Shown here one piece after another: positions 1 to 43,985 of a stretch of DNA of 43,985 nucleotides; positions within the stretch are counted from its first letter, which is position 1, and each line of letters begins with the position of its first letter. Source of the DNA: a virus. The position numbers were made by a program, and so were the translations under genes. The notes beneath the pieces are model-generated. The model made no database searches, was not told the DNA's origin, and saw only the letters and a list, made by a program, of their open reading frames with translations. Where the stretch lies: the IMG/VR virus record IMGVR_UViG_3300045988_075559. One strand, given 5' to 3'.

Positions 1-99
1 ATTTTTTTTGTCTCTTTCTCTGTGGCTTTTGCTTTATCTACGCTGAGTAACTTTTCAATTAAATTCCTATTCTTTCCTCCTATGCATCTATTGTGTTAA
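1..99. repeat. Terminal direct repeat, left copy (identical to 43887-43985)
   Basis: attttttttgtctctttctctgtggc...catctattgtgttaa occurs at both ends. This is most simply a circular-assembly overlap. Confidence 0.95.
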
Positions 100-4319: not shown

Positions 4320-4982
4320 TCAGATACCATACTGATCTAAGTCTCTTAATATTTCTTTTTTCTGCTGTTCTTTTGCTTCCTGGGCTTCTTTTTCCTGTTT
4401 TACTTTATTGCGTATTTCATCCGTCAGTCTGACTCCGCACACGCAATTAAAGAACTGCTGCCCTGAATTCTCGATCTTATCAATAAATCCAAGTTCAAGA
4501 GCCTTCTCTGCTGTGATCCATGTTTCCTTATCCATCATTTTCAGGATTTCATCTTTTGATCTTCCTGTTTTTTTTGCATACGCTTCCGAAAGCGCACTGT
4601 TCATTGTTTTCAGGATTTCTGCGTTCTTCTGCATATCATGATAATCTCCGGAAGCTCCTGACATTGAGACATTGTGGATCATTATAGTCGCAACAGGGCT
4701 CATTTTGCATGTGTTTGCCATTGCAATCACACTGGCTGCACTACCAGCAAGCGATTGAATGTTGATTTCCACGTCACTTCTTCCGGCAAGAATAGAATAG
4801 ATTTCCTGTCCTGCCATCACAGAGCCGCCGCCTGAGTTTATGTTTACCGTGAGTGTTTCTCCTGGTTGAAGAGAGGCAATTGCATTCCTGATATCATTCG
4901 GACATGTGGAATCCCAGTCCAGCCAGTCGTAAATCCATTTATCATCATTGCTGATGATATCCCCTCTTACATCAATCTCCAT
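4320..4982 (-). CDS. ClpP-family (S14) prohead maturation protease
   Basis: ATG 4980-4982 is 8 nt after GGAGG. Motifs: ...NINSGGGSVMAG...LAGSAASVIA...IMIHN. Confidence 0.85.
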   Translation of the reverse strand: MEIDVRGDIISNDDKWIYDWLDWDSTCPNDIRNAIASLQPGETLTVNINSGGGSVMAGQEIYSILAGRSDVEINIQSLAGSAASVIAMANTCKMSPVATIMIHNVSMSGASGDYHDMQKNAEILKTMNSALSEAYAKKTGRSKDEILKMMDKETWITAEKALELGFIDKIENSGQQFFNCVCGVRLTDEIRNKVKQEKEAQEAKEQQKKEILRDLDQYGI

Positions 4983-6252
4983 CTCCTTCACCTCCCTGTG
5001 TGTTAACTCCGTAAGCCGCGCCTATATGTGTTATTGGCTGATACGTTCCGTTTACCATGTTGACATCTCCTCCGTCCACGAAAGGAAGATCAAGGAGATC
5101 TCTCCCCTCATTGATCGTATAGATTCCGTTCTGCACGTATCCAGTTATTACTTCCTTCTGTGTCTTTGAATCCGTTCTCAATAATGCTTTTTCGTTGAAT
5201 TTAAAATAATATCCTTCTTTTTTCTCAGTATCAGAAAGACATTTATAGTTTATCTCCTGCTCGTACTGTGACAATCTATAGCTCATCGTGTCCACCAGGA
5301 ATGCCAACTGCTGGCTTTCAGAATTTGAATAGCTTGACTTATCATAATCGTTTAGCTGATTTGGTTTAATTCCGAATGCTGCTGCAATCTGCAATGCCGT
5401 ATATTTTTTTATCTCTGCATACTGCGCATCTGCCAGAGTTACGTTTAGTGGCTGCAGTGTCATACCAACTGGTACCGCCACCACTTTACCTGCGTTTTTA
5501 GCGCCTGAAAGTAATGCGTTGTATTCCTTTTGCAAGGCCATACGCTTTGGTTTATCAAGGTCTCCTGTATACTGCAACGCTGCCTTTGCGGTTAATCCGC
5601 TAGCATACAGCTGATTCAAGTATTTCTGTGACTCCACTGCGCCCGAAATTGAATCCTGTAAGATCTGCCTTACCGGTTTTCCCATGATTCCATTAAGTGT
5701 GCACCATGTTTTAAAGTGCATAACATTATCCTGTGAAAAAGTGTATGTCTTTCCGGTCTTAGGATCGCTGTATCGATAATACAGCCTTCCTGCGTCTCCG
5801 AACACTCCCACATCATCCATTAGCACATCCACATAATTGCTCTGCATAGGCCAGAATGAAAGAATGTTGTATTCTCCTCCATATCTTCCCTTTTTCTCGA
5901 ATTTCGTCTGTATCCATACATACGCATTTCCATAATGTTCACAATTATATTCTATCGTGCCCCAGAACGTCGCCGGAGTCATGATCTGATTTGGTCTGTT
6001 CATAAGGAGCCATGAAGCTCTCGTCGGATCTGCCCGTATTTTTCCCTTATCGGTCTGCTTATAAAATTTCAGTGGCATTTTCCCCATTGTTTCTGAAAGC
6101 ATTTTTAAGCATGTAAAATACGTTACTTCTCCAATTGCATTTCGTGGGGTTTTTGGATCAATTCCAAGCCACTCCATTAGCCTTTCATCATCTATTGATG
6201 TAGGCTCTCCAACAAGGGAATTCCACATTTCTTTAATTTTCTGTAGAATCCT
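4972..6252 (-). CDS. Portal protein (HK97 family), proposed AGG start
   Basis: Portal-like 418-aa ORF after TerL. AGG 6250-6252 is 7 nt after GAGGAG (6260-6265) and adds ILQKIKE. The ORF-track ATG 6226-6228 has no SD. Confidence 0.8.
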   Translation of the reverse strand, partial: RILQKIKEMWNSLVGEPTSIDDERLMEWLGIDPKTPRNAIGEVTYFTCLKMLSETMGKMPLKFYKQTDKGKIRADPTRASWLLMNRPNQIMTPATFWGTIEYNCEHYGNAYVWIQTKFEKKGRYGGEYNILSFWPMQSNYVDVLMDDVGVFGDAGRLYYRYSDPKTGKTYTFSQDNVMHFKTWCTLNGIMGKPVRQILQDSISGAVESQKYLNQLYASGLTAKAALQYTGDLDKPKRMALQKEYNALLSGAKNAGKVVAVPVGMTLQPLNVTLADAQYAEIKKYTALQIAAAFGIKPNQLNDYDKSSYSNSESQQLAFLVDTMSYRLSQYEQEINYKCLSDTEKKEGYYFKFNEKALLRTDSKTQKEVITGYVQNGIYTINEGRDLLDLPFVDGGDVNMVNGTYQPITHIGAAYGVNTQGGEGDGD

Positions 6253-7996
6253 TCAATATCTCCTCAATAAAATTATCAATGTAATCTCCGTAATCGTCTC
6301 CGAATGCATGAAACATTGCCAGCTTATACGCACATAGTGTTGCATCCACCGGGTCGATTCTCTTTGTTGTTGCATCTTTATCAATTTTGATCAATCCATT
6401 GTTCTGCCGGATTACCGCATTACTCATCGCATAATTCAGCAGAGGATTGTAAGTATATATAATATTTCTGCAAAATACCTGCTCTCTGAATCCCTGTGTT
6501 GCTTCGTTTAAATGTTTGTGGCTCTGAAATACTTCTTCGACATCGTATCCTTCATCTGACAGATCCATCATTAATTTACTTGCATTTGCAGGGTCAAAGC
6601 ACAGGCATTGTATTTTTAATTTCATTTTTTCGCAGGTCTCAAGAACATATCTCATAACTGCTCCCTGATCTACGATCGGAGTGTTTGTTACCTCCAGAAA
6701 TCCCATACGTTCCCACGCGTCATAGGCAACCTTGTCTTTTATAATATGTTCCTGAAGCTTCTCCCTTGTCGGGATAAAACTGTGTGACCAAAGAATATAC
6801 TTTACTATTTCTTTTCTATTCGCATCATATTCCCCGGATAAAAATGGAATCATAAACGCCACTGATGTAAGATCTGTCTTTGCGGACATATCGAAACCTA
6901 CATACACCGGATGTCCCGTTATATCAAATGGTAATTCATTCACCTGGCAGGCTTTCCATTTCGACATGTCCATATACCCATTCTCTTTCGCCTGCACCCA
7001 GACATCCAGACATTTTGTGAGGAAGGCCGTCATATGTTCTGGCTGTTCTCTGGCAATCTTATATTCACCGCGAATCTTATCGACACCTTCCGGATATGTC
7101 ATTCTAATCGGATTAGCTTTCTTCCAAGTCTCTTCGTTATCCAGATTTGAAATGTCTTCATAATCTTCCGGGTCCATCTCACAAATGTCGATTAGATATT
7201 CATCATTCTCCACGTCCGTGTTTGGATCCAACACCTTGGAACAATACTGATACTCAGTCACATAACAAGGATAAGTTAAATCCATTCCAGCTGTTGTTAT
7301 GATCATCAAGAGCGGCTCTTTTGTGTTTGATCCTATTCCTAAATCATAGAACTCCGTGGTTTTGTGCTGATGATACTCATCCAAAACCAGAAGTGCAGGG
7401 TTTGTACCATCCCCGGACTTTCCATCGTCTTTTGATAATGGTTTGATTGTGCTATTGCTTTTCAGATGTTTTATACAGTCCCTGGTTACCTTAAATTTCA
7501 TCCTCAAAGGTGATCCTTGAAGCATTAATCCGGCTTCCCCGAATACAATCTTGGACTGATCGCGTTTTGTGCCGGCGGTATAAATCTCGTATACTTCTCC
7601 GTTCTTGGTTGATGTAACTGCTGCCTCATAGAGTGCAATACCTGCCTCTTCCTGAGATTTCGCATTCTTTCTAGCCACTTCTGTGAAATATTTCTTAAAA
7701 CGTCGATATCCGGTATCTTTATGCACCCATCCGTACAGCTGGCAGATTCTAAATCTCTGCCATGGTGTTAGAATGATCGGTTGCTTTGCCAGAACTCCTT
7801 TACTATGTCGTAAGAGCGCAAACCATTCTACAATGTTCTCTGCCTGTCTTTCATTCCACACATACGGGAAATCCAATTGACCGATTCGGTCAATATCTTT
7901 CAACAATCTTTTGCAGGCCCATATGTGTTTCCTGCCGCTGATAATCTTTCCAGAGATACAATCTAATGCGTATTGTTTTAATTCATCAAGGATCAT
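6233..7996 (-). CDS. terL: Terminase large subunit
   Basis: 587 aa with ATPase and nuclease halves. The ATG overlaps the TerS stop (ATGA coupling). Confidence 0.9.
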   Translation of the reverse strand: MILDELKQYALDCISGKIISGRKHIWACKRLLKDIDRIGQLDFPYVWNERQAENIVEWFALLRHSKGVLAKQPIILTPWQRFRICQLYGWVHKDTGYRRFKKYFTEVARKNAKSQEEAGIALYEAAVTSTKNGEVYEIYTAGTKRDQSKIVFGEAGLMLQGSPLRMKFKVTRDCIKHLKSNSTIKPLSKDDGKSGDGTNPALLVLDEYHQHKTTEFYDLGIGSNTKEPLLMIITTAGMDLTYPCYVTEYQYCSKVLDPNTDVENDEYLIDICEMDPEDYEDISNLDNEETWKKANPIRMTYPEGVDKIRGEYKIAREQPEHMTAFLTKCLDVWVQAKENGYMDMSKWKACQVNELPFDITGHPVYVGFDMSAKTDLTSVAFMIPFLSGEYDANRKEIVKYILWSHSFIPTREKLQEHIIKDKVAYDAWERMGFLEVTNTPIVDQGAVMRYVLETCEKMKLKIQCLCFDPANASKLMMDLSDEGYDVEEVFQSHKHLNEATQGFREQVFCRNIIYTYNPLLNYAMSNAVIRQNNGLIKIDKDATTKRIDPVDATLCAYKLAMFHAFGDDYGDYIDNFIEEILKDSTEN

Positions 7997-8502
7997 ATTG
8001 CACCAAACCGGTTTTCAATTTCTTTCTGCTGCTTATTCACTTTTGCCGTGCCGGCTTTCAGTCTCGAATCAATTGTCAATCCACACAAGGCAGCAAAGCG
8101 TCGCATTTCTTCCGCATATCCTTTCTGAATGTCTACCATCGGATTCTTTACGACAATTACTCCGGTTCTGGTTTCTCTGTCAACATAATATGTCTGCTGA
8201 CTTAATATTTCTGTGGCTTTTACATAGTTTGCGAACGCATTACAATAGCCTCCGATATTATTCCTGTCCAGGTTTCCGACTATATTTAGTTTATCCAACT
8301 CTTTTATGATCCTGCGCCATTCTTTTTTTGCCACATCATCTATCAGCCATGTCGGAGGACGTTTGAGCTGGTTTTTCTCTGTTCTTACCTGGTCTTCTGC
8401 GTCTGCTTTCTTTTGTCCTTCTACTATTGTCAGGTGCTTTTTCTGCAAGCTGACTGGTTTCATTGGTCTTGCCCTTGTCCTCCCTCCTCTCTGGCCTGCC
8501 AA
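7993..8502 (-). CDS. terS: Terminase small subunit (P27 family)
   Basis: TTG 8500-8502 gives MAGQRGGRTRARP, the usual family N-terminus. ATG 8542-8544 is an alternative. Neither has a clear SD. Confidence 0.65.
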   Translation of the reverse strand: MAGQRGGRTRARPMKPVSLQKKHLTIVEGQKKADAEDQVRTEKNQLKRPPTWLIDDVAKKEWRRIIKELDKLNIVGNLDRNNIGGYCNAFANYVKATEILSQQTYYVDRETRTGVIVVKNPMVDIQKGYAEEMRRFAALCGLTIDSRLKAGTAKVNKQQKEIENRFGAI

Positions 8503-9001: not shown

Positions 9002-9072
9002 TAGCGGGAGACGGATTCGAACCGCCATTCCAGGCTAAGGAGGCCTGTAAGTTTCCGTTACTTTATCCCGCG
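9002..9072 (-). tRNA. Initiator-like tRNA with anticodon CCU (decodes AGG)
   Basis: 71-nt cloverleaf with acceptor CGCGGGA/UCCCGCU and C1 opposite U72. D stem AAGU/ACUU (A11:U24); anticodon arm CAGGC-CUCCUUA-GCCUG; T arm GGCGG-UUCGAAU-CCGUC; A73. No encoded CCA. Confidence 0.75.
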
Positions 9073-9202: not shown

Positions 9203-9235
9203 GGAAAATCAATATGAGTCTGGTGTTAAACCGGA

Positions 9236-9303
9236 GCAGAACATCAGGATTCGAACCTGCGGCTCCATGGCTCACGCTCGCTCCTATTTGGCGAGATGTT
9301 CTG
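9236..9303 (-). other. Degenerate tRNA-like element (acceptor, D and T arms; no anticodon arm)
   Basis: CAGAACA/UGUUCUG acceptor, UCGC...GCGA D arm and GCAGG-UUCGAAU-CCUGA T arm. Only 17 nt (G CGUGAGCCAUGGAGCC) sit where about 23 nt of anticodon arm plus variable loop should be, and they do not pair. Confidence 0.4.
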
Positions 9304-10913: not shown

Positions 10914-11104
10914 TCATTTCTCCTTGAAATATTCCAGTTAAAGTCTTCTACTGCTCTGGTGGCTTCCTGCTTCTTTAGGGCTGCCAGACCTCCCCAGGGC
11001 TTGCCGATAAAAACATGGTAGTCCAGGCTGGTGTAGATTAAACAGTCCGGAGGATTCCATCCCATGGTTTTTCGGAATAGTTTCTTTTTCTGTCTTTTAT
11101 TCAT
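10880..11104 (-). CDS. Hypothetical protein (74 aa)
   Basis: ATG is 9 nt after AAAGG. The 3' end overlaps the next gene by 34 nt, so the call is uncertain. Confidence 0.4.
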   Translation of the reverse strand: MNKRQKKKLFRKTMGWNPPDCLIYTSLDYHVFIGKPWGGLAALKKQEATRAVEDFNWNISRRNEWIRSSHRYRR

Positions 11105-27146: not shown

Positions 27147-27353
27147 TTATACATTTTCTTCATTTTCAATAAAATTCTGTACATCTTCTTCCTCCTCTGT
27201 TTCTTCTGGAATATAAACGTCTGTCATTGCTGCCAGATACTGAATTGTTACGTTCTGGTTTTCAATGATTTTTTTCTGCTTTTCTACGGTTGCTCTGAGG
27301 TTCTCGTCCTCTGCCGCTTCCGCAGGTGTCTGAGTCATTTTTCTTACTTCCAT
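27147..27353 (-). CDS. Hypothetical acidic protein (68 aa)
   Basis: ATG 27351-27353 follows AAAGGGTGAAGAAC. It overlaps the RT ORF 3' end by about 90 nt. Confidence 0.4.
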   Translation of the reverse strand: MEVRKMTQTPAEAAEDENLRATVEKQKKIIENQNVTIQYLAAMTDVYIPEETEEEEDVQNFIENEENV

Positions 27354-28383
27354 GTTCTTCACCCTTTCTTAACTGTTTTAAATATTTCTGAGTCCTTTGT
27401 TTTACTTTATACGAATTTCCTTTATCAGCATTATTTTCCCAGGAATTGTGATGTTCATCTACTTTTTCCGGTTCAAGTTCTCCTCTCTGTGATTTATGAA
27501 CCATCCTCACAAGAGTTTTTCTTTCATGCTTTACACTATCTGAGTTAAGCGTCATGATTATCCTTCCTGTTTCTGTCAGCCGATAGTCGAATCCCAAAAA
27601 TGTAAATCCTTTTTCAAGCGGTGTTATGTGTGATTTCTTTTCATTTGCTTCCAGCCCGTATATCTGCAATTGCTTCATTATCTCACCGAAAACTCTCTCA
27701 GCCTGTTTTCTTGTTTTAACAAGAATCCAGAAATCATCCATGTATCTGATATTGTATTTTACATGCAACTGTTCTTTGATGTAATGATCTAATGGATTCA
27801 GAAGCGAAATACCGGCAATCTGTACCATTTGAGATCCTGGATTGTATCCGGTTTCTCCTGCGTACTGGTCTCGTAAAACTCCACACGACATTTCTGTTGT
27901 ATCCTTATCCGTCAGATTCCTTATTTGCCTTTCCACATCACTGTGCCGCATGTTTAGGTAGTATCCATGTATGTCAACCTGAACTATCCATCCTTTTGTG
28001 CCGTATCTGCAGTAATAATTCCATAGATATTTTTTAACCAGTGCTCTTGCAAAGTCTGTTCCCTTTCCTGTCTGGCAGGCGCAATTTGAATAAGTGAATC
28101 CCTTTGTCATTTGAGGATAAAGAGAATTATCATTAATGCTCCTTTGATATACCCGATCCTTAAACGGAATACTGAGAGCTTCCCGGCGTTTCGGATATGT
28201 TATCAAGACTGTTTTAGGCTTCCCATTCTTCCATGTTCCGTCTTGATGCTGATGTTTCATCCGGAGTATATTTTCTTCTCCATTTAACAAAAACGACTTA
28301 ACTGATGGTTTCCATGTTACTCCATTCTTACATTTCAGCATTGATTCGTATAAACTATCATAGCTTGTTATATGATCTTTCAT
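27262..28383 (-). CDS. DGR reverse transcriptase
   Basis: YMDD box (IRYMDDFWIL) and a DGR-type ...NPGSQMVQIAG... motif. It lies downstream of the TR. The last about 30 aa may be non-native read-through. Confidence 0.85.
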   Translation of the reverse strand: MKDHITSYDSLYESMLKCKNGVTWKPSVKSFLLNGEENILRMKHQHQDGTWKNGKPKTVLITYPKRREALSIPFKDRVYQRSINDNSLYPQMTKGFTYSNCACQTGKGTDFARALVKKYLWNYYCRYGTKGWIVQVDIHGYYLNMRHSDVERQIRNLTDKDTTEMSCGVLRDQYAGETGYNPGSQMVQIAGISLLNPLDHYIKEQLHVKYNIRYMDDFWILVKTRKQAERVFGEIMKQLQIYGLEANEKKSHITPLEKGFTFLGFDYRLTETGRIIMTLNSDSVKHERKTLVRMVHKSQRGELEPEKVDEHHNSWENNADKGNSYKVKQRTQKYLKQLRKGEEHGSKKNDSDTCGSGRGREPQSNRRKAEKNH

Positions 28384-28548
28384 CTTTTGTGCTTCCGCAG
28401 TTTCTCAGTGCTGGCAGGCTTATGTAAGTCACGCACTGTCTCTTTCGATTATCCGCGGTATTGTTTAGGCTTATGCCAGGGATTTCGGCTCCTTGTCTAT
28501 ATCTTCAAGGCGATCATTGCTATGCAATAACCATAATGCTTTTAGGAA

Positions 28549-28675
28549 GACAATCGGGGCATACACATTCGAGTTCCATGCGTTCGTGTTGTTGACGTTG
28601 CCGGATGTGTTCACATTCATGACGTTGTTAGCGTTGCCGCGGTTAGCCGAACGAGAAAACACATTCTGAGGTGTT
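28549..28675 (-). repeat. DGR template repeat (TR)
   Basis: 127 bp aligned to the VR at an offset of +641. There are 14 mismatches, every one at a TR adenine in the coding sense (T on the plus strand). Confidence 0.9.
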
Positions 28676-28694
28676 AGCCTACGTCCCATGTAAT

Positions 28695-29126
28695 TTAAGA
28701 GTATCTTTCTATGTCAGATTCCCGCCATTTTTTAATATAATTTCTCACTTTTACTGTTTGTTCTGACCAATATTCTACCCTTTTTCCTTTCAGGTGAAAG
28801 AGTGGATGCGCAAGCCCAATCAGTGCAAGTAAGTTGTTACAATCCAGAATCGCCTGACGCTGCAGTTTGCTTCTCCAGGCCCATAGCTCTTTCTTATTCT
28901 TTTCTGTTACCCGGATATTGTTTGCGGTCCAGGCATTTATATAAATGTCTTTCGCTGTCCGGATGATATCGTCCGTGAGCGCAGATTGATATTCCGGAAG
29001 AAATACCTTTTTATTCTTGCAGATCTGAATCGTGTAGACCGCCAGCTCTCTTGCGTACCATACTGCATTTAACTGTCTATTCTGCGGTGTGTCCGGTACA
29101 TTTCTCTTACCTGCTTTAACTGCCAT
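28695..29126 (-). CDS. avd: DGR accessory variability determinant (Avd-like)
   Basis: 143-aa basic helical protein between the target gene and the TR. ATG follows AAAGGAAAAGAA. Confidence 0.7.
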   Translation of the reverse strand: MAVKAGKRNVPDTPQNRQLNAVWYARELAVYTIQICKNKKVFLPEYQSALTDDIIRTAKDIYINAWTANNIRVTEKNKKELWAWRSKLQRQAILDCNNLLALIGLAHPLFHLKGKRVEYWSEQTVKVRNYIKKWRESDIERYS

Positions 29127-29140
29127 TTCTTTTCCTTTCT

Positions 29141-29166
29141 ATCCCTGCATCCGCGGGTGCAGGGAT
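29141..29166. promoter_or_regulatory. GC-rich hairpin downstream of the VR (DGR target-recognition element candidate)
   Basis: atccctgca / tccgcggg / tgcagggat. It lies 15-40 nt beyond the target-gene stop, 3' of the VR. Confidence 0.6.
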
Positions 29167-29180
29167 TATTTGATTGCTGA

Positions 29181-30377
29181 TTATACGACGACAAGCGGGG
29201 CATACACATTCGAGTACCATGCGCTCGTGTCGTCGACGGAGCCGGATGTGTTCACATTCATGACGCTGTAAGCGTTGCCGCGGCCAGCCGAACGAGAAAA
29301 CACACCCTGAGGTGATGTGTGGTTCGCAGCTGAATATCTAATCATAATCGGATAGGTTTTCCATGGTTCAATCGGTGTTTTGGAATTTGTTCTCCGCTGC
29401 CAGTATTCGTGAACTGCTCCCTCCTCTTTGCTCATGTTTACGTTCATCTGAGACATGGATGCAAGGAATACTCTGTCGTATGTGATATCTGTCACGCCAC
29501 CATCATTGACGGTATTCGCAAGGGTAGTTACTTTGACCGTCTTTAATGCTGCCAGCATATCCGCAGGCATTCCGCAGAGGAAACCGTCTTTTGTGGCTAA
29601 CTGACTCGGCGCAATATCCCAGTCGTCCTGTTTTGTCCACCATTTGCCCTTTGGTTGTGTTGAATTGAGCCACTGACGGGCCGCTGAGTATTTCCAGCGA
29701 TTCCAGCCGTATGCTGATTCCTGCATACTGTTAAGATTTCCGTTTCTGGTTGCGTACTGCATGGTTCCCAGATCTGTTCCGTCTGATCCGGATGTAACTG
29801 CCACGGTTTCAATTGTGGTGATTCCGTCTGCAGCGTAAGAGGTTGCTTTCCAGTTGCTCGGCACAATGTCCGGCATCTGTGTGAATCCATATACTGATCC
29901 ACCTGCAGGTACGGCCTTGGTCAAAGTAAACTGCCAGTATGTGTCTGCTTTTGCATTATTTCCCCAATCCTTTTCTAATTTGAGGTGATAAGTTCCTGCT
30001 GCCAGTCCATCCGGACAGCGCAAGAATGCACGGTTGCTAAACTGTAATCCGAATGGGGTTGTGTAATGCGCTTCCAGGAATGTTCCTGAAATGACTTCTC
30101 CGTCCTCCAGTTCTACATTTTCAAAATGTGTAACCTGCCACGGGAAATCATATTCCTGGCCGGCGGCAGTATCTGTCCATTTCTCAAGAATCTGGTCTCC
30201 GAAATCAAAAATTTTCTGAGCGTACCCATTTCTGGAAAGCCCGCTGATCTGGTCCCACGTTGATATGTTTTCCAGGTTTGCCGCCTGTGTAAATGCCATT
30301 GTCTGCAATGCCTGTGAAATTTCTTTCATAGTGCTTTCGCGTGGAAAATTAATGAGTGTCTGGTCTCCTGTTGCCAT
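29181..30377 (-). CDS. DGR target protein (putative receptor-binding tail protein with C-terminal variable region)
   Basis: ATG is 7 nt after AAGGAGG. The C-terminus ...GVFSRSAGRGNAYSVMNVNTSGSVDDTSAWYSNVYAPLVVV carries the VR. Confidence 0.85.
   Translation of the reverse strand: MATGDQTLINFPRESTMKEISQALQTMAFTQAANLENISTWDQISGLSRNGYAQKIFDFGDQILEKWTDTAAGQEYDFPWQVTHFENVELEDGEVISGTFLEAHYTTPFGLQFSNRAFLRCPDGLAAGTYHLKLEKDWGNNAKADTYWQFTLTKAVPAGGSVYGFTQMPDIVPSNWKATSYAADGITTIETVAVTSGSDGTDLGTMQYATRNGNLNSMQESAYGWNRWKYSAARQWLNSTQPKGKWWTKQDDWDIAPSQLATKDGFLCGMPADMLAALKTVKVTTLANTVNDGGVTDITYDRVFLASMSQMNVNMSKEEGAVHEYWQRRTNSKTPIEPWKTYPIMIRYSAANHTSPQGVFSRSAGRGNAYSVMNVNTSGSVDDTSAWYSNVYAPLVVV
29190..29316 (-). 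repeat. DGR variable repeat (VR)
   Basis: The last about 43 codons of the target gene. TR Asn codons correspond to G/Y/S/D in the VR. Confidence 0.9.
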
Positions 30378-31737: not shown

Positions 31738-32478
31738 TTAAAATTTTAATCTGTATTTCAATCGGCTTCTTTTTCTGCTAAAACGCACCTTATCTACGGT
31801 TGGATCAGAATACATTTTGAGTCTGCCCTTTACAACCTTAAAGGCGGCAAAATGGACGTTTCCGGTTTCGCCTTTAAGTTCAGTTTCTTTCTGGTGGACA
31901 TAATTATCAATGTCTTTCTTTCCCTCTTCTACTCTGCCGGGAATAGATGCTGCAACTTTCTGTGCTTCTCCGGCATAGTATTTCGCATTGTCTTCTTTTT
32001 GCTCCGGATAATCTCCTCTTCCGTGTGCCCAGGCCTCTGCCTGGTCTCTGGCTTTTTCTGACCGGTCGGCTGCCTGATTGACTGCCTCGACCGTCTCTCT
32101 GAAAATCTCCGGTTCTTCCGGCGATCCGGGAACCTCCGGTTTTGGTCTTGCTTTTATTGGTATGGTTATTTTATGTTCTGTATTTCCAGAATTATTTTCA
32201 CTCAGGTATATGAATGCGTATATTTTGTAATTTTGGTCGATTTCTTCGTTCTCCAGCATGGAATCCGGAATTGGCACATCTGTTACAGAATCTTTCGTTG
32301 TTCCTATTCTTGTTACAGATGTTCCGCCTGTTTCTTCCAATGAGAAATGTATCTCAATAGCCGGCCGTAGAGTAAGTCCCTGAATTCTTAAAATTTGTCC
32401 ATAATCCCACTGCCACGCTGTTTCGGCCCGAATATTTGTTTCTGCTTCTGAAAAAACAGCAGTGATTATATTATTCCT
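31738..32478 (-). CDS. Fibre-module virion protein (family not recognised), proposed AGG start
   Basis: The frame is open for 46 codons upstream of the ORF-track TTG (32340, no SD). AGG 32476-32478 is 6 nt after GGAGG (32485-32489) and overlaps the rSAM 3' end. Confidence 0.6.
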   Translation of the reverse strand, partial: RNNIITAVFSEAETNIRAETAWQWDYGQILRIQGLTLRPAIEIHFSLEETGGTSVTRIGTTKDSVTDVPIPDSMLENEEIDQNYKIYAFIYLSENNSGNTEHKITIPIKARPKPEVPGSPEEPEIFRETVEAVNQAADRSEKARDQAEAWAHGRGDYPEQKEDNAKYYAGEAQKVAASIPGRVEEGKKDIDNYVHQKETELKGETGNVHFAAFKVVKGRLKMYSDPTVDKVRFSRKRSRLKYRLKF

Positions 32479-33796
32479 CTTCTGCCTCCTTCTTTAGCAA
32501 ATTCCATTCTTTTTCCGTGATAATATCCAATGCCCATTCTTTCGGGATGTATAGTTTCATTCTTTTATTGATTTTATTTTTTCTGTAATATCTGTTCCAG
32601 AAATAGGCATTCGCCAGTGCTCTTGCTTTGTGCATAATGCAAATATATGTCGCCCTGGCGTCCGGTGTTCCGAAAATCTGGTAATTGTATGCAGTGCACC
32701 AGCTGCAGCCTTCTGCGATAGGACAGTTAAAGCACTCGTCTGTGCTCTGTGTTCTCCTGTCAATTTTTTTCAAGCGCTCTACGCGGCATCTGTCGCATTC
32801 CGTCTGACAGATTCCATAATCTACATCTCCGATTGAATAAGGTTCCTGTTGATTTCCCAGAGAGCTTTCCATGTAGCGCAAACACGGATATATAATGCCT
32901 GCCGGATCTACGGCCAGCATCACTCCGTTTCCGCCACACCAATTCTCCAGATCGTCCTCCTGTTTCGGATGGAAGAACTCCTCTTCAAACAGCGAACAAA
33001 AATAATCATTTTCGAAGTCCATGTTGTTTTCCAAAATGTAGTCTGCGAGACGCTTCATTTCGTTATATAGTACGGTGGCGTGAATTGGTTTCCATCCATC
33101 CTCGTATACGCAGTTCGCATTTATTTCGCAATATCCCAGCTCAAACATATGGACGATCGCATCGTATGTATGCATGACATTGGCCGGCGCGATAGTGATC
33201 TTTGAACCCATGTAATTTCCTTTGTCCATCCAATCTTTCGCCGCAGATACTGCCAAGTCATACGAAGGGCTTCCATCTGAGAATATGCGGCAGGAATCAT
33301 GCAGTTCTTGATTCCCGTCAACTGTGACTGAGAAAGACAATCTGTTCTTCCATTTATCAAGTACTCTTCCGACTTCCGGATCATGATATAGTGTTCCGTT
33401 TGAGCATATAGAAAACATCGTTTTATCAAGCCACGGGTGATTAAGTTCTATCATTCTGTCAATTGCGTATGAGCATATCTGGTCTATTAATTTCGCTTCT
33501 AACAATGGCTCACCGCCAATGAAATCAATGATCAATCCCGGAGATTTATGGGGGTTGATATATTCTTTCATCCCTTTTTCTCCGGTTAACAATAAATCTA
33601 TCATTTTCTCAGCCGTTTCAAGGCTCATTTTGCGTTTTCCTTTTTTGATCTGGTAGCAGTATGTGCACGCCAGATTACAATCATCGGTGACCTGAAATGT
33701 CACTGTCTGTGTTAAAATTTTTTCTTTTTCATTTGCCTGATGAAGTTCCGGATATAATCGGCTTAATTGTTCTGTGTACTGCTCAGTTCTTTTCAT
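32471..33796 (-). CDS. Radical SAM / SPASM-domain peptide maturase (CXXX-repeat-target type)
   Basis: ATG 33794-33796 is 8 nt after GAAGG. CNLACTYC (CX3CX2C), GGEPLL, and C-terminal Cys clusters (CGGNG...YPC, CFNCPIAEGCSWC). Confidence 0.85.
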   Translation of the reverse strand: MKRTEQYTEQLSRLYPELHQANEKEKILTQTVTFQVTDDCNLACTYCYQIKKGKRKMSLETAEKMIDLLLTGEKGMKEYINPHKSPGLIIDFIGGEPLLEAKLIDQICSYAIDRMIELNHPWLDKTMFSICSNGTLYHDPEVGRVLDKWKNRLSFSVTVDGNQELHDSCRIFSDGSPSYDLAVSAAKDWMDKGNYMGSKITIAPANVMHTYDAIVHMFELGYCEINANCVYEDGWKPIHATVLYNEMKRLADYILENNMDFENDYFCSLFEEEFFHPKQEDDLENWCGGNGVMLAVDPAGIIYPCLRYMESSLGNQQEPYSIGDVDYGICQTECDRCRVERLKKIDRRTQSTDECFNCPIAEGCSWCTAYNYQIFGTPDARATYICIMHKARALANAYFWNRYYRKNKINKRMKLYIPKEWALDIITEKEWNLLKKEAEEE

Positions 33797-34124
33797 TTTC
33801 AATACCTTCGATTTCACAATTGCACATTATGTTGATCTCAAGTTTCGTCGAATTGTTTGGAAGCATCCAATTATATTTATGTTTCTTTATTGCTCCCGGT
33901 ATATACAACTTTTCAATTTCCTGAACTGCCAGTTTGTACTCCGCTTCCAGTTCTACTCCTTTTTTTTGATATGCTTTGAATGCATCAGAATTAATAATAT
34001 CCGGATCGTTCGGATGTGATTCAATAATTCTCTGGATAACATCTTTTGCAAATCCCAGTTCAAAGTTTAATCTTTCAATGTATTCTGCCTTTTCTCGTTC
34101 GATTTCTACAATTATCTTTCTCAT
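33783..34124 (-). CDS. Small helical protein, candidate rSAM accessory partner (113 aa)
   Basis: ATG 34122-34124 is 5 nt after AAGGGAG. It overlaps the rSAM start by 14 nt. Confidence 0.55.
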   Translation of the reverse strand: MRKIIVEIEREKAEYIERLNFELGFAKDVIQRIIESHPNDPDIINSDAFKAYQKKGVELEAEYKLAVQEIEKLYIPGAIKKHKYNWMLPNNSTKLEINIMCNCEIEGIENEKN

Positions 34125-34482: not shown

Positions 34483-35142
34483 TCATTTTACCGCAGATGA
34501 AACCTGCCCATAGCATGTATCTTTGCATGTATTTCCGCAATTAGTAGAACAATTTGACGAGCATGAAGTACTGCATCCTCCGCAAATCGTAGAACAGCTA
34601 TTTGAACACGATTCCGCGCATCCTCCCATGCATGAAGATGTACATTCGGATCCGCATGAACTTCCGCATGAGCTGCATCCAGAACAGCCAGTGCATGATG
34701 TCGAACACGATGCTGTGCATCTATTGTCGCATCCAGTACAGTATCCTGAACATGTCCCAGAGCATCCAGAGCAATCGTATGAACAACTGTACCCGCATCC
34801 AGTACATCCATTTTTGCAGCCGCCCGAACAGTCATCTGCGCATGTTGCAAAGCAATTGCCTCCGCATGCATTTGTGCAGTCTGCGCAAGTCTGCGCACAA
34901 TTTGTCGTGCAGGTCTGGAAGCAATCCGTTTTGCAGCCACCCGAACAGTCATCTGCACATGTTGCCTGACAACCCGTACATTCATCCTCACATGCTCTGT
35001 TGCATAGCCTATCACAATTCCCACTGCATCCAGTTTTACAGCTGGTTGAGCATGCGGTTCCGCATGAGCTTCCGCAATTTCCTTTCGTCGTATTTTGACA
35101 ACTTGTCGCGCACTGAGTTCCGCAACTAGATGTACAAGCCCT
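34483..35142 (-). CDS. CXXX-repeat Cys-rich protein (219 codons, 54 Cys), proposed AGG start
   Basis: Absent from the ORF track. This 660-nt open frame, (AGG)ACTSSCGTQCATSCQN...CKDTCYGQVSSAVK, has no N-terminal ATG/GTG/TTG. AGG 35140-35142 is 8 nt after AGGAGG (35151-35156). Stop is TGA 34483-34485. Confidence 0.7.
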   Translation of the reverse strand, partial: RACTSSCGTQCATSCQNTTKGNCGSSCGTACSTSCKTGCSGNCDRLCNRACEDECTGCQATCADDCSGGCKTDCFQTCTTNCAQTCADCTNACGGNCFATCADDCSGGCKNGCTGCGYSCSYDCSGCSGTCSGYCTGCDNRCTASCSTSCTGCSGCSSCGSSCGSECTSSCMGGCAESCSNSCSTICGGCSTSCSSNCSTNCGNTCKDTCYGQVSSAVK

Positions 35143-35163
35143 TTTGTTTTCCTCCTTTTAATT

Positions 35164-35691
35164 TTAAGCTTTTATTGATGTAGTGCATCCCGCGCCGCAT
35201 GTATGTGTGCAGCCGCTCGAACAGCCGCCTGTGCAGCCGCCACAGCCGCCTGAACAGCCATCTGAGCACTGTTTTCCACATGTAGTGCTACAGTTTCCAG
35301 AGCACGAAGCGCACCCCATACAGGCAGATGCACAGGCCAGTTCGCATAGACCTGTGCAATTCCCCCTACACCCCGATACCTTTGCATCTTTCTGTATGTT
35401 CAGCATTTTGTCTGCGAAATTTTCCGCTCTTTCCAAAGTCATTTCAAGAGCAGTTCTTTCTTTTCTCAGACTGTTATCTTGCAGGAAATCATTGATTTCC
35501 AGAAGTGGATCAATAATCTTTTGAATGTGCTCATCTGAAACCTGTTTTCCATTCTGCGGCATGAAATCAAAATCATATTCCTGCGATGCATATTTCTTCA
35601 GTGAACCTCCCATTTGTTCTGCTGTTCTGCTCATCATTGTTTTTTTTACTTTTTCTTTGATCCGTTTCAAAGATTCAGCTGTTATAATCCT
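35164..35691 (-). CDS. Protein with helical N-domain and C-terminal CXXX-repeat tail (17 Cys), proposed AGG start
   Basis: AGG 35689-35691 is 7 nt after AGGAG (35699-35703). The ORF-track TTG 35670 lacks an SD. C-terminus: CRGNCTGLCELACASACMGCASCSGNCSTTCGKQCSDGCSGGCGGCTGGCSSGCTHTCGAGC. Confidence 0.7.
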   Translation of the reverse strand, partial: RIITAESLKRIKEKVKKTMMSRTAEQMGGSLKKYASQEYDFDFMPQNGKQVSDEHIQKIIDPLLEINDFLQDNSLRKERTALEMTLERAENFADKMLNIQKDAKVSGCRGNCTGLCELACASACMGCASCSGNCSTTCGKQCSDGCSGGCGGCTGGCSSGCTHTCGAGCTTSIKA

Positions 35692-36268: not shown

Positions 36269-36803
36269 ATGTTACCTCCTCATTCCGCAGCTGGTAATAT
36301 GTCTTTTCTTTTAGCTGCTTATATGTATAAGGTTTATATTTTTTGTATTGATTGTATCTAAGAGTTATTTCTAGTAGATAATCGAGCGGAACCATCTGTT
36401 CAAACAGATCTTCTACTCCCTTGATCATATACTTACGCGTCACTTCAACCTGACATGATACCTGTTTTTTATCCAGTTCAATGTCCAGTATATAGTTTTC
36501 TCTTCCAAGCACTGCGTCCAGTTTCTGGCGTAGTGTTGTTTCTGTGTATACAGGACTGGACCACCACCTCAGCAGCACTTCCACTTTTCGGTCTTCCAGG
36601 CTAGCGGTATCTAACGGCTGAATTCCGAGGATCTTTTCTCTGCGCTGTATTCCTGATTCTTCAGCTGTTTTGATCGTAATATTACGGTCAATTTCTTCCA
36701 GATAATTTTCAAGAACCCTTCCAACGTTGTCTCCTGCATCAACGCACGCTTTTATCTCTCTTATATCTATTACAACATCCGGGTACTCCACATTTATATG
36801 CAT
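36252..36803 (-). CDS. XkdU-like (DUF2313-type) baseplate/tail protein
   Basis: ATG overlaps the upstream stop. It occupies the position after the baseplate J gene. Confidence 0.55.
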   Translation of the reverse strand: MHINVEYPDVVIDIREIKACVDAGDNVGRVLENYLEEIDRNITIKTAEESGIQRREKILGIQPLDTASLEDRKVEVLLRWWSSPVYTETTLRQKLDAVLGRENYILDIELDKKQVSCQVEVTRKYMIKGVEDLFEQMVPLDYLLEITLRYNQYKKYKPYTYKQLKEKTYYQLRNEEVTFAKNN

Positions 36804-37864
36804 GTGATATCCCCCTTTACCGGCACGGTTCCATCTGTTATCTGTAGATTCTCCGCTTTCCCATTAATTTTAGTGTCTGCCACATCAATGATTCCTTTGA
36901 TATTTACAACTGCTGCCTCAATTTGTAGTATTCTCACAATGATTGTTTCTTTATTTTCCCATTCTTTTCTCAGATTTAGTAAATATTCATCGATAGTCTG
37001 GTTAATATAGCTTTTCAGGGCTTCCGCAGTATATCCGGATTCGCATGTGATTGTTGTCTCTATATTTACGGTAGTTTCTTCTACGCCAGTGATCGTCACC
37101 CTATGCCCGATGGGTGCAAATCCCTCACCTTCTCCGCTGTTTACAATCGGATCAACAGCCGTCTGAGTTGCAGTTATAACATCCTGTGACGGTTTTCTGT
37201 AATCCTGCCCTATGATAGTTATGGCAATTCTGTCCGATGGTGCCTTTACACGTTTCAGCTTGCATCCATATACACCGCTTAATTCTTTTATACGGCTTTT
37301 GTAATATTCCCTATTTCCCGCAAACCCTCTGTAATTATATGTCGCAAGTAATCTCGCGCGATAGCTCTCCGTCTCTTCCTGATCTTTTCCTTCTAATGTA
37401 CACTTAATAATTCTTCCCCATTCAAAATTATCTACGTATCCGATCGGGTCGAGGTCTCCCATTATGTGATTCGGTTCTGCACCCGGGCTATCACAGCCAA
37501 GTCGGTATGTGTGTTCTTTTTCATCAATCACATTGTATACTGTGTAATTGTATTCGTCGAGATTCCAGCGCGATCCAAGTGGTACTTCACAGTTAAATTG
37601 AGCAGTCATTTCTGCATATGTTGCCTGGTTGATATAACATCCTCTGTCGTTTCCATTCCTGATCAAGTGTTCCAGGTCCGCTGTGTCTGCATACATATTC
37701 TGTTCTATTCCAGCAAGCATCAGATAAGCTTCCTCAAGTCTTACCGCCTGTTTTGCGCATGCGTTAAAAATCAAGCTGCCTTCTGATGTATCAATGTCGT
37801 CTGGCATGTCCCTCATCATTGATCGCATGATTGCTTCGTATGTCATTTCTTCAAACCTCTGCAT
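36794..37864 (-). CDS. Baseplate J-like protein (XkdT-like)
   Basis: ...MTYEAIMRSMMRDMPDDIDTSEGSLIFNA... is a J-family N-terminus. The start is ambiguous between ATG 37864, in-frame AGG 37856-58 and ATG 37846. Confidence 0.75.
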   Translation of the reverse strand: MQRFEEMTYEAIMRSMMRDMPDDIDTSEGSLIFNACAKQAVRLEEAYLMLAGIEQNMYADTADLEHLIRNGNDRGCYINQATYAEMTAQFNCEVPLGSRWNLDEYNYTVYNVIDEKEHTYRLGCDSPGAEPNHIMGDLDPIGYVDNFEWGRIIKCTLEGKDQEETESYRARLLATYNYRGFAGNREYYKSRIKELSGVYGCKLKRVKAPSDRIAITIIGQDYRKPSQDVITATQTAVDPIVNSGEGEGFAPIGHRVTITGVEETTVNIETTITCESGYTAEALKSYINQTIDEYLLNLRKEWENKETIIVRILQIEAAVVNIKGIIDVADTKINGKAENLQITDGTVPVKGDITCI

Positions 37865-41230: not shown

Positions 41231-43396
41231 CTACGCTGTTTGTGGCATGTTGTCACTTGCCTCTTCGATTTTCCTTACAATCGCTTCTGCTATTTTATCA
41301 ATATCAGAATCATCTCGCACTACGATACTGTCTGCAAGCTTCGCAATTTTGACTATAAAGTTCTTCTTTGCCTCCTGGCGTGCCTTCTGTACAGATTCGT
41401 CGTGTGGATACACTCTGCTTCCAGATGGAAGATCTACAATCTCTCCACCTTTTTCACTGATCTGTACGATACCTCCCTGCCAGTTATCTGTGCCTTTCGC
41501 AAGAGTTGGGATTTGTGGTATGTTAAGGCCCTCCCAGCCTTTTCCTCCTATTCCGGGTACCCACTCAGGAACTGTAAAATGAATTGAATTAATCTTGCTG
41601 ATCGCTCCATTGACGATTGATATCACAGCATTAATTGGAACTTTTACCATATCAGCCAGTCCTGAGAATGCAGTTCCTACAAACTCCTTGCATCCATTCC
41701 ATACAGATTCCCAGTCTGTTTTAAACACACCGTTCAAAAAGGAGATAATTCCTTCGAACATAGTGAGTAACGCATCAATGGCAACTCCAATCGTATCAAA
41801 TGTTCCGACGATAAATTCTCCGGCGAAATTAAAGATTTCTTCGACTACCGGTCCGAATGTCTCTTTCAGGTATGATGCTATTTTTTCCACAAATTCTATG
41901 AACGGTTCTAATTGCGGTTTTACTGTCTGCCAGAATTCCACAAATCTATCTCCTATCTTCTGCAAAATAGGTGCGATTCTGTCCCAGTTTTTATAGATCA
42001 GCAGAGCCGCTGCTGCCACTGCTGCTGCCGCAATTCCAAATGGTCCTGTCATTATCTTCGCAATTCCCGAGAATCCTGAAGCACCCGTCAGTTTTGTAAT
42101 CGCACCACCTATTTTTCCAAAATTTGAGATTACTGTTCCGATTCCGGAGGACACTTTCCCGAACCCAAGTAAAACAGGTCCTACTGATGCCGCTACTGCT
42201 GCAAATTTGACTATCGTCTTCTGAGTTGCCGGTCCTAATTTATTCCATTTGTCCGTAAATTTCTGTATGGCATTAATCCCTTTTGTAACATACGGAATCA
42301 ACTGGTTCCCAATTGGTTGCAGCACATCTACCTGTATCGTTCTCCAAAGTCCTCCCAGAGCGCCTGATAATGTATCGTATTTTACATTTACCAGTTCTTC
42401 GACAGACTCCTTGCTTTTATCTATTGCATCACTCGCCGTCGACATAGAGGTTATAACCTGAGGTCCCAAATCTTCCCACATGGTTCCGAATAGGTTTACT
42501 CCAGCTGCACTCTGTGCTACCGGATCATCCATGGAAGCAAGTCCTTCTATGACTTCGTTGAATGCTTCTTTTGCAGTTTTCCCTCCAGCTCCAAACTTTT
42601 GTGCCATTTCGTCTGCATTCATCCCGAGAGCCTCGAATCCCTGTTTCGTCGTGTCTGATCCATCTATCGCTCTGATTGAGAATTCTTTTACCGCATCTCC
42701 GATCTTATCCAGATTGAAAGCTCCGTTCTGTGCACCGTTTGCGAATACAGAAAACATATCCTCTGCATCCAGTCCCAGCTTCTTGAACTGTACGGAGTAT
42801 TCGTCAATGTTGTCGAAGAGTTCATCTGAGAAATTCAATCCTGATTGCATGCCCTGAGTCATGAGATTGAATGCTTCTCTTGCTGATACCCCATAGTGCT
42901 TTATAAGTGCGTCGGCTGCTCTTGTGCTTTCTGCTACATCTACGTCAAACGTATCTGACAGCGTATATGCGTATTCCGTGCATCTCTGCAGGGCAGAATC
43001 GTCCAGATAGGACATATTCTGGTTGACAGTTGCCATTGCTTCCGCAACATCATTGATGGACTCACCAAAATTATCTTTATAGACATTGTTGATCATGTCT
43101 TTATATTTGCCCATCTCATCTGTTGCGGTACCTGTTGCCGCCGCAAACTGCTGAAATGCGTCCTGTGAATCAGAGGAAAATTTAATTGCTGCAGTTCCGA
43201 CTGCTGCCAGTGGTGCAGTGACCGACTTGGTCAATGTTTCTCCGGCAGATGTAAATGCATCTCCGGCATGAGAGAACACATCAGCAACATTGTTAAAACG
43301 TTTTTCCAGGTCACGAGCCTGGGCCGCCACCTGTTTTGATGGATCGCTGAAATCATCTATTAACTTAACAACTGCTGCAACCGTCTTACCTGCCCT
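41231..43396 (-). CDS. Tape measure protein, proposed AGG start
   Basis: AGG 43394-43396 is 10 nt after GAGGAG (43407-43412) and adds AGKTVAAVVKLIDDFSDPSKQ before the ORF-track GTG (43330, no SD). Helical and Gly/Ala-rich hydrophobic segments. Confidence 0.8.
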   Translation of the reverse strand, partial: RAGKTVAAVVKLIDDFSDPSKQVAAQARDLEKRFNNVADVFSHAGDAFTSAGETLTKSVTAPLAAVGTAAIKFSSDSQDAFQQFAAATGTATDEMGKYKDMINNVYKDNFGESINDVAEAMATVNQNMSYLDDSALQRCTEYAYTLSDTFDVDVAESTRAADALIKHYGVSAREAFNLMTQGMQSGLNFSDELFDNIDEYSVQFKKLGLDAEDMFSVFANGAQNGAFNLDKIGDAVKEFSIRAIDGSDTTKQGFEALGMNADEMAQKFGAGGKTAKEAFNEVIEGLASMDDPVAQSAAGVNLFGTMWEDLGPQVITSMSTASDAIDKSKESVEELVNVKYDTLSGALGGLWRTIQVDVLQPIGNQLIPYVTKGINAIQKFTDKWNKLGPATQKTIVKFAAVAASVGPVLLGFGKVSSGIGTVISNFGKIGGAITKLTGASGFSGIAKIMTGPFGIAAAAVAAAALLIYKNWDRIAPILQKIGDRFVEFWQTVKPQLEPFIEFVEKIASYLKETFGPVVEEIFNFAGEFIVGTFDTIGVAIDALLTMFEGIISFLNGVFKTDWESVWNGCKEFVGTAFSGLADMVKVPINAVISIVNGAISKINSIHFTVPEWVPGIGGKGWEGLNIPQIPTLAKGTDNWQGGIVQISEKGGEIVDLPSGSRVYPHDESVQKARQEAKKNFIVKIAKLADSIVVRDDSDIDKIAEAIVRKIEEASDNMPQTA

Positions 43397-43562
43397 TGTT
43401 TTTCATCTCCTCTTTTAAGTCTTGCATTTCCTGTTTCAAAAAAGCGCGGGTGATTAATCGTTCACCCGCGCCCATATTGTAATATTTCGATGGCTTCCAT
43501 TTTTTCAGGCGGAACAATGCGTAAGCAACGCTTGCTTCGCTGTCCACCTTTATAAGTTTTTT
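43386..43562 (-). CDS. -1 frameshift extension of the tail assembly chaperone
   Basis: After the A-AAA-AAC slip the -1 frame stays open for 56 codons (LIKVDSEASVAYALFRLKKWKPSKYYNMG...KNKGR), ending at TAA 43386-88. Confidence 0.7.
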   Translation of the reverse strand, partial: KKLIKVDSEASVAYALFRLKKWKPSKYYNMGAGERLITRAFLKQEMQDLKEEMKNKGR

Positions 43563-43954
43563 ACTTCTTCTTCAGCGTCTTCTCCAAGTCCTGAGAGCTT
43601 TACGATTTCTGATGCAATGCTTCCAGTTTCCATTCCGAACAGAATCGCCGCAAGATCCTTTGGCGTAGAAGCCCCAAAATGTTCCATCAATTTCTGATCA
43701 GTCAGACATGGATCCACGACACCGTATACACAGCACATTAAATTAAAATCATATGTGGCATTCATGTCACGGTTTCCCTTTTTGTCATACAGCATGGCCT
43801 GAAGGGTGTTGTATCTTTTTCCTGATAATTCTCTAATCGTAATCTCTGCGTCTTCGCCTACCAGTTTGGCCAGCTTCTTTGATTTAATTTTTTTTGTCTC
43901 TTTCTCTGTGGCTTTTGCTTTATCTACGCTGAGTAACTTTTCAATTAAATTCCT
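43550..43954 (-). CDS. Tail assembly chaperone (XkdN-like), proposed AGG start
   Basis: Open frame of 52 codons upstream of the ORF-track ATG (43795) with no ATG/GTG/TTG. AGG 43952-43954 (= 66-68 in the left repeat copy) is 7 nt after GGAGG (43962-43966). Confidence 0.7.
   Translation of the reverse strand, partial: RNLIEKLLSVDKAKATEKETKKIKSKKLAKLVGEDAEITIRELSGKRYNTLQAMLYDKKGNRDMNATYDFNLMCCVYGVVDPCLTDQKLMEHFGASTPKDLAAILFGMETGSIASEIVKLSGLGEDAEEEVKNL
43556..43562 (-). promoter_or_regulatory. Slippery heptamer A AAA AAC
   Basis: It is in the zero frame (GT)A AAA AAC, two codons before the chaperone stop. Confidence 0.7.
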
Positions 43955-43985
43955 ATTCTTTCCTCCTATGCATCTATTGTGTTAA
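43887..43985. repeat. Terminal direct repeat, right copy (identical to 1-99)
   Basis: Exact 99-bp match to the window start. Genes read through the junction: tube stop, chaperone SD and chaperone start. Confidence 0.95.

Follow-up and report, generated by a model that had tools for sequence, protein, structure and literature searches.

In bacteria and their viruses, natural start codons are generally considered to comprise only AUG and near-cognate codons, all of them read by one initiator tRNA(CAU). In E. coli tRNAfMet, a 1x72 mismatch together with the base pairs 2:71, 3:70 and 4:69 directs formylation and excludes EF-Tu, and A11:U24 and the G:C pairs of the anticodon stem also mark initiator tRNAs. 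Stop codons of phage late genes are reportedly recoded with phage-encoded suppressor tRNAs, as Ivanova 2014 and Borges 2022 are said to have described. Start codons have been changed by engineering: an engineered E. coli initiator tRNA with the anticodon CCU, combined with an AGG start codon, gave the largest fold-change increase in 5 of the 6 strains quoted, was described by its authors as providing consistently the highest expression across strains and, in Nissle 1917, yielded AGG-start fluorescence above that obtained with AUG (bioRxiv 10.64898/2026.04.16.719103). Here we analyze the virus genome IMGVR_UViG_3300045988_075559 from IMG/VR (43,985 nucleotides; this whole stretch of DNA is termed the window) and propose, with a probability of roughly 85%, that AGG is the true start codon of many of its late genes and is read by a phage-encoded initiator-type tRNA with the anticodon CCU, termed tRNA(CCU).

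The window ends in a 99-bp direct terminal repeat (positions 1-99 = 43887-43985), indicating that the genome is complete and circularizes to 43,886 bp, and this repeat places a copy of the tail assembly chaperone (TAC) start at 68-66. The window is the complete genome of a temperate myovirus-like phage, the host of which is probably Blautia or another Lachnospiraceae. All AGG-start genes of interest are on the minus strand, and the early genes, the integrase and the lysis gene start with ATG, GTG or TTG. The tail genes are arranged as sheath, tube, TAC (PF08890) with a -1 extension and tape measure protein (TMP, PF10145), followed by the LysM and XkdQ-like genes. The PBSX-like tail module (XkdK/M/N/O) has the same gene order and a -1 frameshifted TAC, but the phage differs from it by the AGG starts of the sheath, tube, TAC and TMP genes. 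No close relatives of the late region or of tRNA(CCU) were found among GenBank phage records, leaving no annotated or cultured phage record to compare with. Orthologous codons were counted in relatives from IMG/VR that were 81-99% identical.

The initial annotation had placed the starts of the chaperone and of the TMP at AGG codons preceded by suitably spaced Shine-Dalgarno (SD) sequences, and the SD, spacer and AGG coordinates were all reproduced on the minus strand:

43550-43954, minus strand: tail assembly chaperone (XkdN-like), 134 amino acids; AGG 43954-43952, SD GGAGG 43966-43962, 7-nt spacer AAAGAAT
43556-43562, minus strand: slippery heptamer A_AAA_AAC, site of a -1 programmed frameshift
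43386-43562, minus strand: chaperone extension in the -1 frame, ...LIKVDSEASVAY...KEEMKNKGR*
41231-43396, minus strand: tape measure protein, 721 amino acids; AGG 43396-43394, SD GAGGAG 43412-43407, 10-nt spacer

The chaperone frame is open from TAA 43984-82, with AGG as codon 9 and ATG 43795, the first ATG, GTG or TTG, as codon 62, which makes the annotated count of 52 open codons between the two exact. When started at AGG, the chaperone matches Pfam Phage_TAC_5 (PF08890) over profile positions 2-132 of 135 (E=4.6e-15), whereas initiation at Met43795 would cost the protein about 40% of this domain, which thus needs the 52 upstream codons. The calculated SD duplex energy is -10.2 kcal/mol at AGG and +0.6 kcal/mol at ATG 43795, and the AGG is located 11 nt past the tube stop codon, a TAG that overlaps the chaperone SD. 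A comparison with homologues, which the initial annotation had suggested, agrees with both starts: at the codon aligned with AGG 43954, 60 of 61 relatives have ATG and one has AGG, and the AGG of the TMP is conserved. The XkdN-like identity of the chaperone is further apparent from its full-length Pfam match, a heptamer near the 3' end that is invariant in 54/54 relatives examined, and a -1 open reading frame (ORF) that ends at the TMP start. These data support a chaperone start at the SD-spaced AGG 43954. The sequence at 43955-43966 contains AGGAGG in the window and AGGGG(A) in the closest ATG-start relatives (L065-L078), i.e. the chaperone AGG is accompanied by a stronger SD than its ATG counterparts.

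For the TMP, the frame opens after TGA 43405-03 and the AGG overlaps the end of the frameshifted chaperone (last codons AAG GGC AGG TAA), as originally described. The first canonical start, GTG 43330-28, was confirmed to lack an SD and is 22 codons past the AGG, at which the SD duplex energy is -9.4 kcal/mol. The protein matches PF10145 (E=1.2e-26) and its gene adjoins the 3' side of the TAC gene. In two comparisons, the start AGG GCA GGT AAG was kept in 58/58 and 50/54 relatives, respectively, while GTG 43330 is replaced by GTA in most relatives and therefore cannot be the TMP start of the family. One relative, L239, has an ATG exactly at the position of the TMP AGG, and its protein P0002 begins MAGKTVAAVVKLIDDFS. 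A TMP start at the SD-spaced AGG 43396 is thus also supported.

About nine more late genes begin at AGG:

80-514, minus strand: tail tube (DUF2001/XkdM-like), 144 amino acids; AGG 514-512, SD GGAGG, 7-nt spacer
527-1606, minus strand: tail sheath; AGG 1606-1604, SD AGGAGG, 9-nt spacer
3148-4302, minus strand: major capsid protein (MCP), HK97-type, PF05065; AGG 4302-4300, SD GGAGG, 5-nt spacer
4972-6252, minus strand: portal, PF04860; AGG 6252-6250, SD GAGGAG, 7-nt spacer
7993-8475, minus strand: small terminase (terS), Terminase_4; probable AGG 8475-8473, GGAGG, 7-nt spacer; alternative ATG 8463
31738-32478, minus strand: ORF of 246 amino acids; AGG 32478-32476, SD AGGAGG, 6-nt spacer
34483-35142, minus strand: Cys-rich ORF of 219 amino acids; AGG 35142-35140, SD AAGGAGG, 8-nt spacer
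35164-35691, minus strand: tail-fibre-region ORF of 175 amino acids; AGG 35691-35689, SD AGGAG, 7-nt spacer
36794-37858, minus strand: baseplate J, PF04865; AGG 37858-37856; the ATG at 37864 of the window is unconserved

The tube provides an example comparable to the chaperone: started at AGG, it matches positions 5-138 of the 139-position DUF2001 profile over residues 6-139, the initiator Met of full-length homologues (142-147 amino acids) aligns to the AGG codon, and the start codon in relatives is AGG in 56 cases and ATG in 1. For the sheath, AGG was counted 49 times, ATG 3 times and GTG once, with an SD duplex energy of -12.0 kcal/mol at AGG versus -5.6 kcal/mol at ATG 1591. The MCP start is AGG in 26 and ATG in 3 relatives, the first ATG of the window gene being 17 codons downstream of the AGG and devoid of an SD; the portal start is AGG in 22, with an ATG one codon upstream in 3. 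AGG was invariant for the tail-fibre-region ORF (27/27) and for the Cys-rich ORF (26/26), which has no canonical start codon for 176 codons. The baseplate J start is AGG in 12, ATG in 27 and GTG in 1. The terS gene probably starts at AGG 8475, which is found in 25/25 relatives, the downstream ATG not being conserved; this start is less certain than the others. The 246-residue ORF has its first canonical start 46 codons downstream and an SD duplex energy of -12.6 kcal/mol at AGG; it lies outside the related loci, so its support comes from the window itself. In single relatives, ATG is swapped for AGG in the protease gene (L246) and in the LysM gene (L284). ATG, GTG and AGG therefore interchange at orthologous start codons.

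Two other AGG codons were considered and are probably not starts. For AGG 38614 (XkdR-like), the DUF2577 profile begins at ATG 38578 and three relatives have CGG; AGG 40575 (XkdQ-like) is TGG or CGG in relatives.

AGG is contained in the SD consensus, so that some in-frame AGG codons are expected near starts, and gene callers picked downstream starts in database entries. Both facts could suggest that translation begins at ATG 43795 and GTG 43330 and that the AGG codons belong to an untranslated leader with purine-rich, SD-like sequence. We consider this very unlikely, given that the Pfam TAC and tube domains reach the AGG, that homologue N-termini align to it, that relatives have ATG at the same codon, that GTG 43330 is GTA in most relatives, and that ATG 43795 is without an SD. 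To estimate the chance background, we counted orphan SD sites, defined as GGAGG, AGGAG or GAGGA located 5-10 nt before a codon from which the frame stays open for at least 80 codons and which has neither an in-frame canonical start upstream of it nor one in the next 10 codons. On its coding strand, the window has 7 such sites with AGG versus 9 with ATG. In 23 outgroup loci (±10 kb around tube homologues of at most 65% identity, without the tRNA), there were 0 orphan SD-AGG sites in 277 kb versus 119 SD-ATG sites, so the SD-AGG sites of the window are not due to chance.

The AGG codons could also be regarded as sequencing or assembly errors, or as inactivating ATG-to-AGG mutations in a decaying prophage, since a single T-to-G change suffices and AGG is a minority state for the chaperone (2/62). 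Such an origin has a negligible probability in our view: about ten genes are affected, at their start codons only, the same AGG codons are present in more than 50 independently assembled contigs, all ORFs are intact in a genome that is circular and complete, and the chaperone SD is stronger, not weaker, than in ATG-start relatives.

A phage-encoded tRNA of the initiator type would explain how AGG can serve as a start codon. Two tRNA genes, as in most relatives, open the late operon, immediately ahead of HNH, terS and terL:

9002-9072, minus strand: initiator-type tRNA, anticodon CCU; labeled tRNA-Arg(cct) by ARAGORN; Rfam tRNA, 48.8 bits
9080-9153, minus strand: tRNA(CAU) of the elongator type (G1:C72), either Met or Ile2 (lysidine), directly upstream of tRNA(CCU); ARAGORN and Rfam

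The acceptor stem of the window tRNA(CCU), 5'-CGCGGGA...UCCCGCU-A, has no encoded CCA and combines an unpaired C1xU72, flagged as non-standard at 1:72 in the Rfam match (cmscan), with G2:C71, C3:G70, G4:C69, G5:C68 and A73; the D arm has A11:U24 and the anticodon arm G29:C41, G30:C40 and the loop CUCCUUA. Its 3' end, ...CCCGCUA with U72, is the commonest form among bona fide CAU initiators sampled from IMG/VR (65/119). We aligned 10 tRNA(CCU) variants; they share a cloverleaf fold in which 13 of 20 pairs covary. The C1 mismatch (opposite U72 or A72), G2:C71, C3:G70, G4:C69, G5:C68 and A73 are invariant in all ten and R11:Y24 (A:U or G:C) is present in nine. Conservation of the 1x72 mismatch, of the acceptor stem of tRNAfMet and of R11:Y24 extends over four diverged tRNA(CCU) types. 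Bacterial tRNAfMet (CAU) shares the 1x72 mismatch, G2:C71, C3:G70, G4:C69, A73 and A11:U24 with the phage tRNA, which differs by its CCU anticodon, by having two of the three stem G:C pairs, by a 7-nt D loop and by U37. When initiator-bodied tRNAs with other anticodons were looked for in IMG/VR, all of the first 120 matches listed had CAU, and no wider pattern was seen among them. Scanning for promoters and terminators around the tRNAs gave chance-level, uninformative results. Upstream of the tRNAs, at about 9230-9300 on the minus strand, we noticed a GGTTCGAATCC motif that resembles a T loop and has a short inverted repeat around it; it had no Rfam match and may be a tRNA remnant.

The ARAGORN label raises the question of whether tRNA(CCU) could be an Arg elongator for rare AGG codons, with the AGG starts being real but read inefficiently by the host initiator tRNA(CAU) through a mismatch at the second position. 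The window subtype carries the arginyl-tRNA synthetase (ArgRS) elements A20, C35 and U36, and native initiator tRNAs were reported earlier to act to some degree at many of the 64 codons, AGG included, according to the preprint on the engineered systems (bioRxiv 10.64898/2026.04.16.719103). Nevertheless, A20 occurs only in the window subtype, all other tRNA(CCU) types having U20, and the initiator features are conserved across the four diverged types, whereas an elongator needs a paired 1:72. The phage tRNA, with its mismatched 1:72 and R:Y at 11:24, does not have the make-up of an elongator tRNA-Arg(CCU), and ordinary genomic tRNA-Arg(CCU) genes differ from it, e.g. GGGCCCGTAGCTCAG... Moreover, capsid, sheath and tube need high-level synthesis, beyond what mismatch initiation would provide, related phages without the tRNA have zero AGG starts, and elements without it in the sequence read carry ATG at these positions. 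An elongator role combined with mismatch initiation therefore appears unlikely, and initiation at AGG by tRNA(CCU) remains our preferred interpretation.

The co-occurrence of tRNA and AGG starts was analyzed in the loci of ±10 kb around tube homologues. Every related locus that reaches at least 9 kb upstream carries tRNA(CCU) about 8.5 kb before the tube gene (40/40), and each of these 40 tRNA-positive loci has orphan SD-AGG starts, amounting to 181 SD-AGG versus 157 SD-ATG in 770 kb. An additional 17 loci of the family, with shorter upstream sequence, contributed 40 more orphan SD-AGG starts. The converse situation is found in L239 (Logan SRR32277463, 12.9 kb of a 14.8-kb contig), where the tube, TAC and TMP genes start with ATG and no tRNA is present in the 12.9 kb read.

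A pattern scan retrieved the initiator-like type of tRNA(CCU) from 64 viral contigs, about 56 of them with the window type, and also matched Blautia aquisgranensis, an uncultured Blautia, a Lachnospiraceae metagenome-assembled genome (MAG) and a Clostridia MAG. In three other phage types, a distinct initiator-like tRNA(CCU) immediately precedes the packaging genes, which have SD-AGG starts:

L026: phage with a T7-like TerL and its own initiator-like tRNA(CCU); packaging genes start at SD-AGG
L028 (with L181): phage with a P22-like portal and its own initiator-like tRNA(CCU); packaging genes start at SD-AGG
L191: Blautia prophage; terS, TerL, portal, S78 protease and MCP all AGG-started

Because their tRNA(CCU) types differ, these lineages support the association independently. 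In a Parcubacteria MAG (L132, 41-114) and an Actinomycetota MAG (L159), which belong to distant phyla, we also observed otherwise canonical initiator tRNAs with the anticodon CCU; no SD-AGG starts are visible in these short loci.

A change of the genetic code could, in principle, produce AGG starts as well. Shulgina and Eddy 2021 (PMC8629427) described an AGG-to-Met code in uncultivated Bacilli, with a tRNA(CCU) that often lacks A20 and was inferred to be charged with Met; initiation was not modelled by the authors. That tRNA has the same acceptor identity as the phage tRNA (A73, G2:C71, C3:G70), but it acts in elongation, and there AGG stands for Met all along the proteins. If AGG likewise meant Met everywhere in the phage or its host, internal AGG codons should behave as Met codons. 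For 24 internal AGG codons with aligned relatives, AGG alternates with AGA, CGA, CGG, CGC, CGT, AAG and AAA (and, in the portal, also with AAT, GGA, GAA and GAG), and none of these codons of the tested genes was ever ATG in relatives, whereas ATG is abundant for internal Met. These substitution tallies rule out AGG as Met in elongation, with which the 1x72 mismatch is also incompatible if elongation is to be efficient, and we regard an altered code as extremely unlikely. As judged from codon alignments, internal AGG is Arg and elongation follows the standard code.

Based on these features, initiation at AGG could proceed as follows. After transcription and addition of CCA, tRNA(CCU) would be aminoacylated, possibly with Met by virtue of the conserved acceptor identity elements of tRNAfMet, or possibly with Arg by virtue of C35/U36 and the A20 of the window subtype. 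The 1x72 mismatch and the G2:C71, C3:G70 and G4:C69 pairs should make the charged tRNA acceptable to the host formyltransferase and initiation factor IF2, and the mismatch should bar it from EF-Tu; being kept out of elongation, it would leave internal AGG codons to the tRNAs of the host, which decode them as Arg. In the 30S P site, tRNA(CCU) would pair perfectly with an AGG located 5-10 nt past a strong SD, and translation would start there. We infer charging, formylation and P-site use from the tRNA sequence; the mechanism is feasible, given that engineered CCU initiator tRNAs work at AGG in E. coli. The Met/fMet acceptor set argues for Met on tRNA(CCU), and methionyl-tRNA synthetase depends less on C35 than on the other anticodon bases, according to work cited in PMC8629427.

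Several observations weigh against initiation by tRNA(CCU), or at least complicate it. Only two of the three G:C pairs of the initiator anticodon stem are kept, 31:39 being C:G in the window and U:G or G:C in other variants, with a full GGG/CCC stem only in L132 and L159, and U37 in the window subtype is unusual. C35 and U36, with A20 in the window subtype, fit ArgRS, which makes the N-terminal residue uncertain, and a residue other than Met may be formylated poorly; that the tRNA is expressed, charged and formylated is a prediction. In the sublineage L288-L290, the codon aligned with the TMP AGG is GGG (L288, about 10,980-11,010), and no good start is visible: there is no ATG, GTG or TTG for about 48 codons after it, and an in-frame AGG AGG 4-5 codons upstream lacks a well-spaced SD. 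The loci of the family are closely related, so their counts are not independent events. Finally, tRNA(CCU) is transcribed in the same direction as the genes it would serve, and a simple rationale as a temporal switch is not obvious.

As for the purpose of the system, we would guess first that the need for a tRNA made by the phage gates or insulates the synthesis of late proteins. In its strongest form, this would be a private initiation channel, shared by at least four unrelated phage morphotypes, in which structural and packaging proteins are made only with the phage tRNA and possibly begin with formyl-Arg; we consider this possible, though less likely than not. Such a channel would gate late expression and silence stray transcripts in the lysogen, and it could sustain translation of the phage genes should host tRNAfMet or canonical initiation be shut off or attacked. 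Late proteins may then begin with a residue other than Met, e.g. formyl-Arg.

Our literature search, which did not cover all journals, found neither AGG as a natural start codon nor initiator tRNAs with anticodons other than CAU in phages, only engineered systems. The engineered orthogonal initiators (i-tRNA(CCU), amber and i-tRNA(AAC); see PMC11744186) resemble the phage tRNA in having an initiator body, a changed anticodon and a complementary codon placed by an SD, but they are man-made and plasmid-borne, whereas the phage tRNA(CCU) is natural, virus-encoded, represented by several types and tied to the starts of essential structural genes. As in stop-codon recoding, a phage tRNA alters the meaning of a codon in late genes and makes these genes dependent on it; however, stop-codon recoding reassigns stops in elongation, while the AGG system adds a start codon and leaves the elongation code standard. 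This points to a new type of system that enlarges the set of start codons naturally and by means of a phage gene. A virus-encoded initiator tRNA with another anticodon would extend the initiation code in nature, parallel to the recoding of stop codons by phages and in the manner that synthetic biology has achieved by design. Control of late genes or insulation from the host through tRNA(CCU) is directly testable, and experiments are within reach because a cultured host is available, Blautia aquisgranensis CLA-JM-H16 (L146, contig NZ_JBBMEJ010000056.1). The pair could also serve as a tool, being a naturally optimized orthogonal combination of initiator and start codon.

A practical consequence concerns annotation, because gene callers clip or miss the starts of these structural genes, so that proteins of this phage family systematically lack their true N-termini in public databases. 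The database TMP and tube proteins P0001, P0003, P0005 and P0085, which come from close relatives, are called from assorted downstream starts, with the N-termini MVKLIDD..., MIDDFS..., MAAQARD... and MINGTFGE...

Other features of these genomes were noted. L239 has intact tail genes, all started with ATG, a diversity-generating retroelement with bAvd and RVT_1 present, and capsid and sheath genes that were called short; neither a terminase nor a portal gene was found in the 12.9 kb read, and the element may be a remnant that was domesticated in the manner of a tailocin. The window, too, contains a module that resembles a diversity-generating retroelement (27262-30377, minus strand), where RVT_1 (27262-28383) adjoins a DUF6273 protein (29181-30377). 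The Cys-rich ORF (34483-35171, minus strand) contains CxxxC-type repeats and is overlapped by a second, fully open frame, and a radical-SAM protein is encoded two genes 3' of it (32471-33817, minus strand). The Cys-rich product may be a crosslinked tail-fibre component or one resembling ribosomally synthesized and post-translationally modified peptides (RiPP-like).

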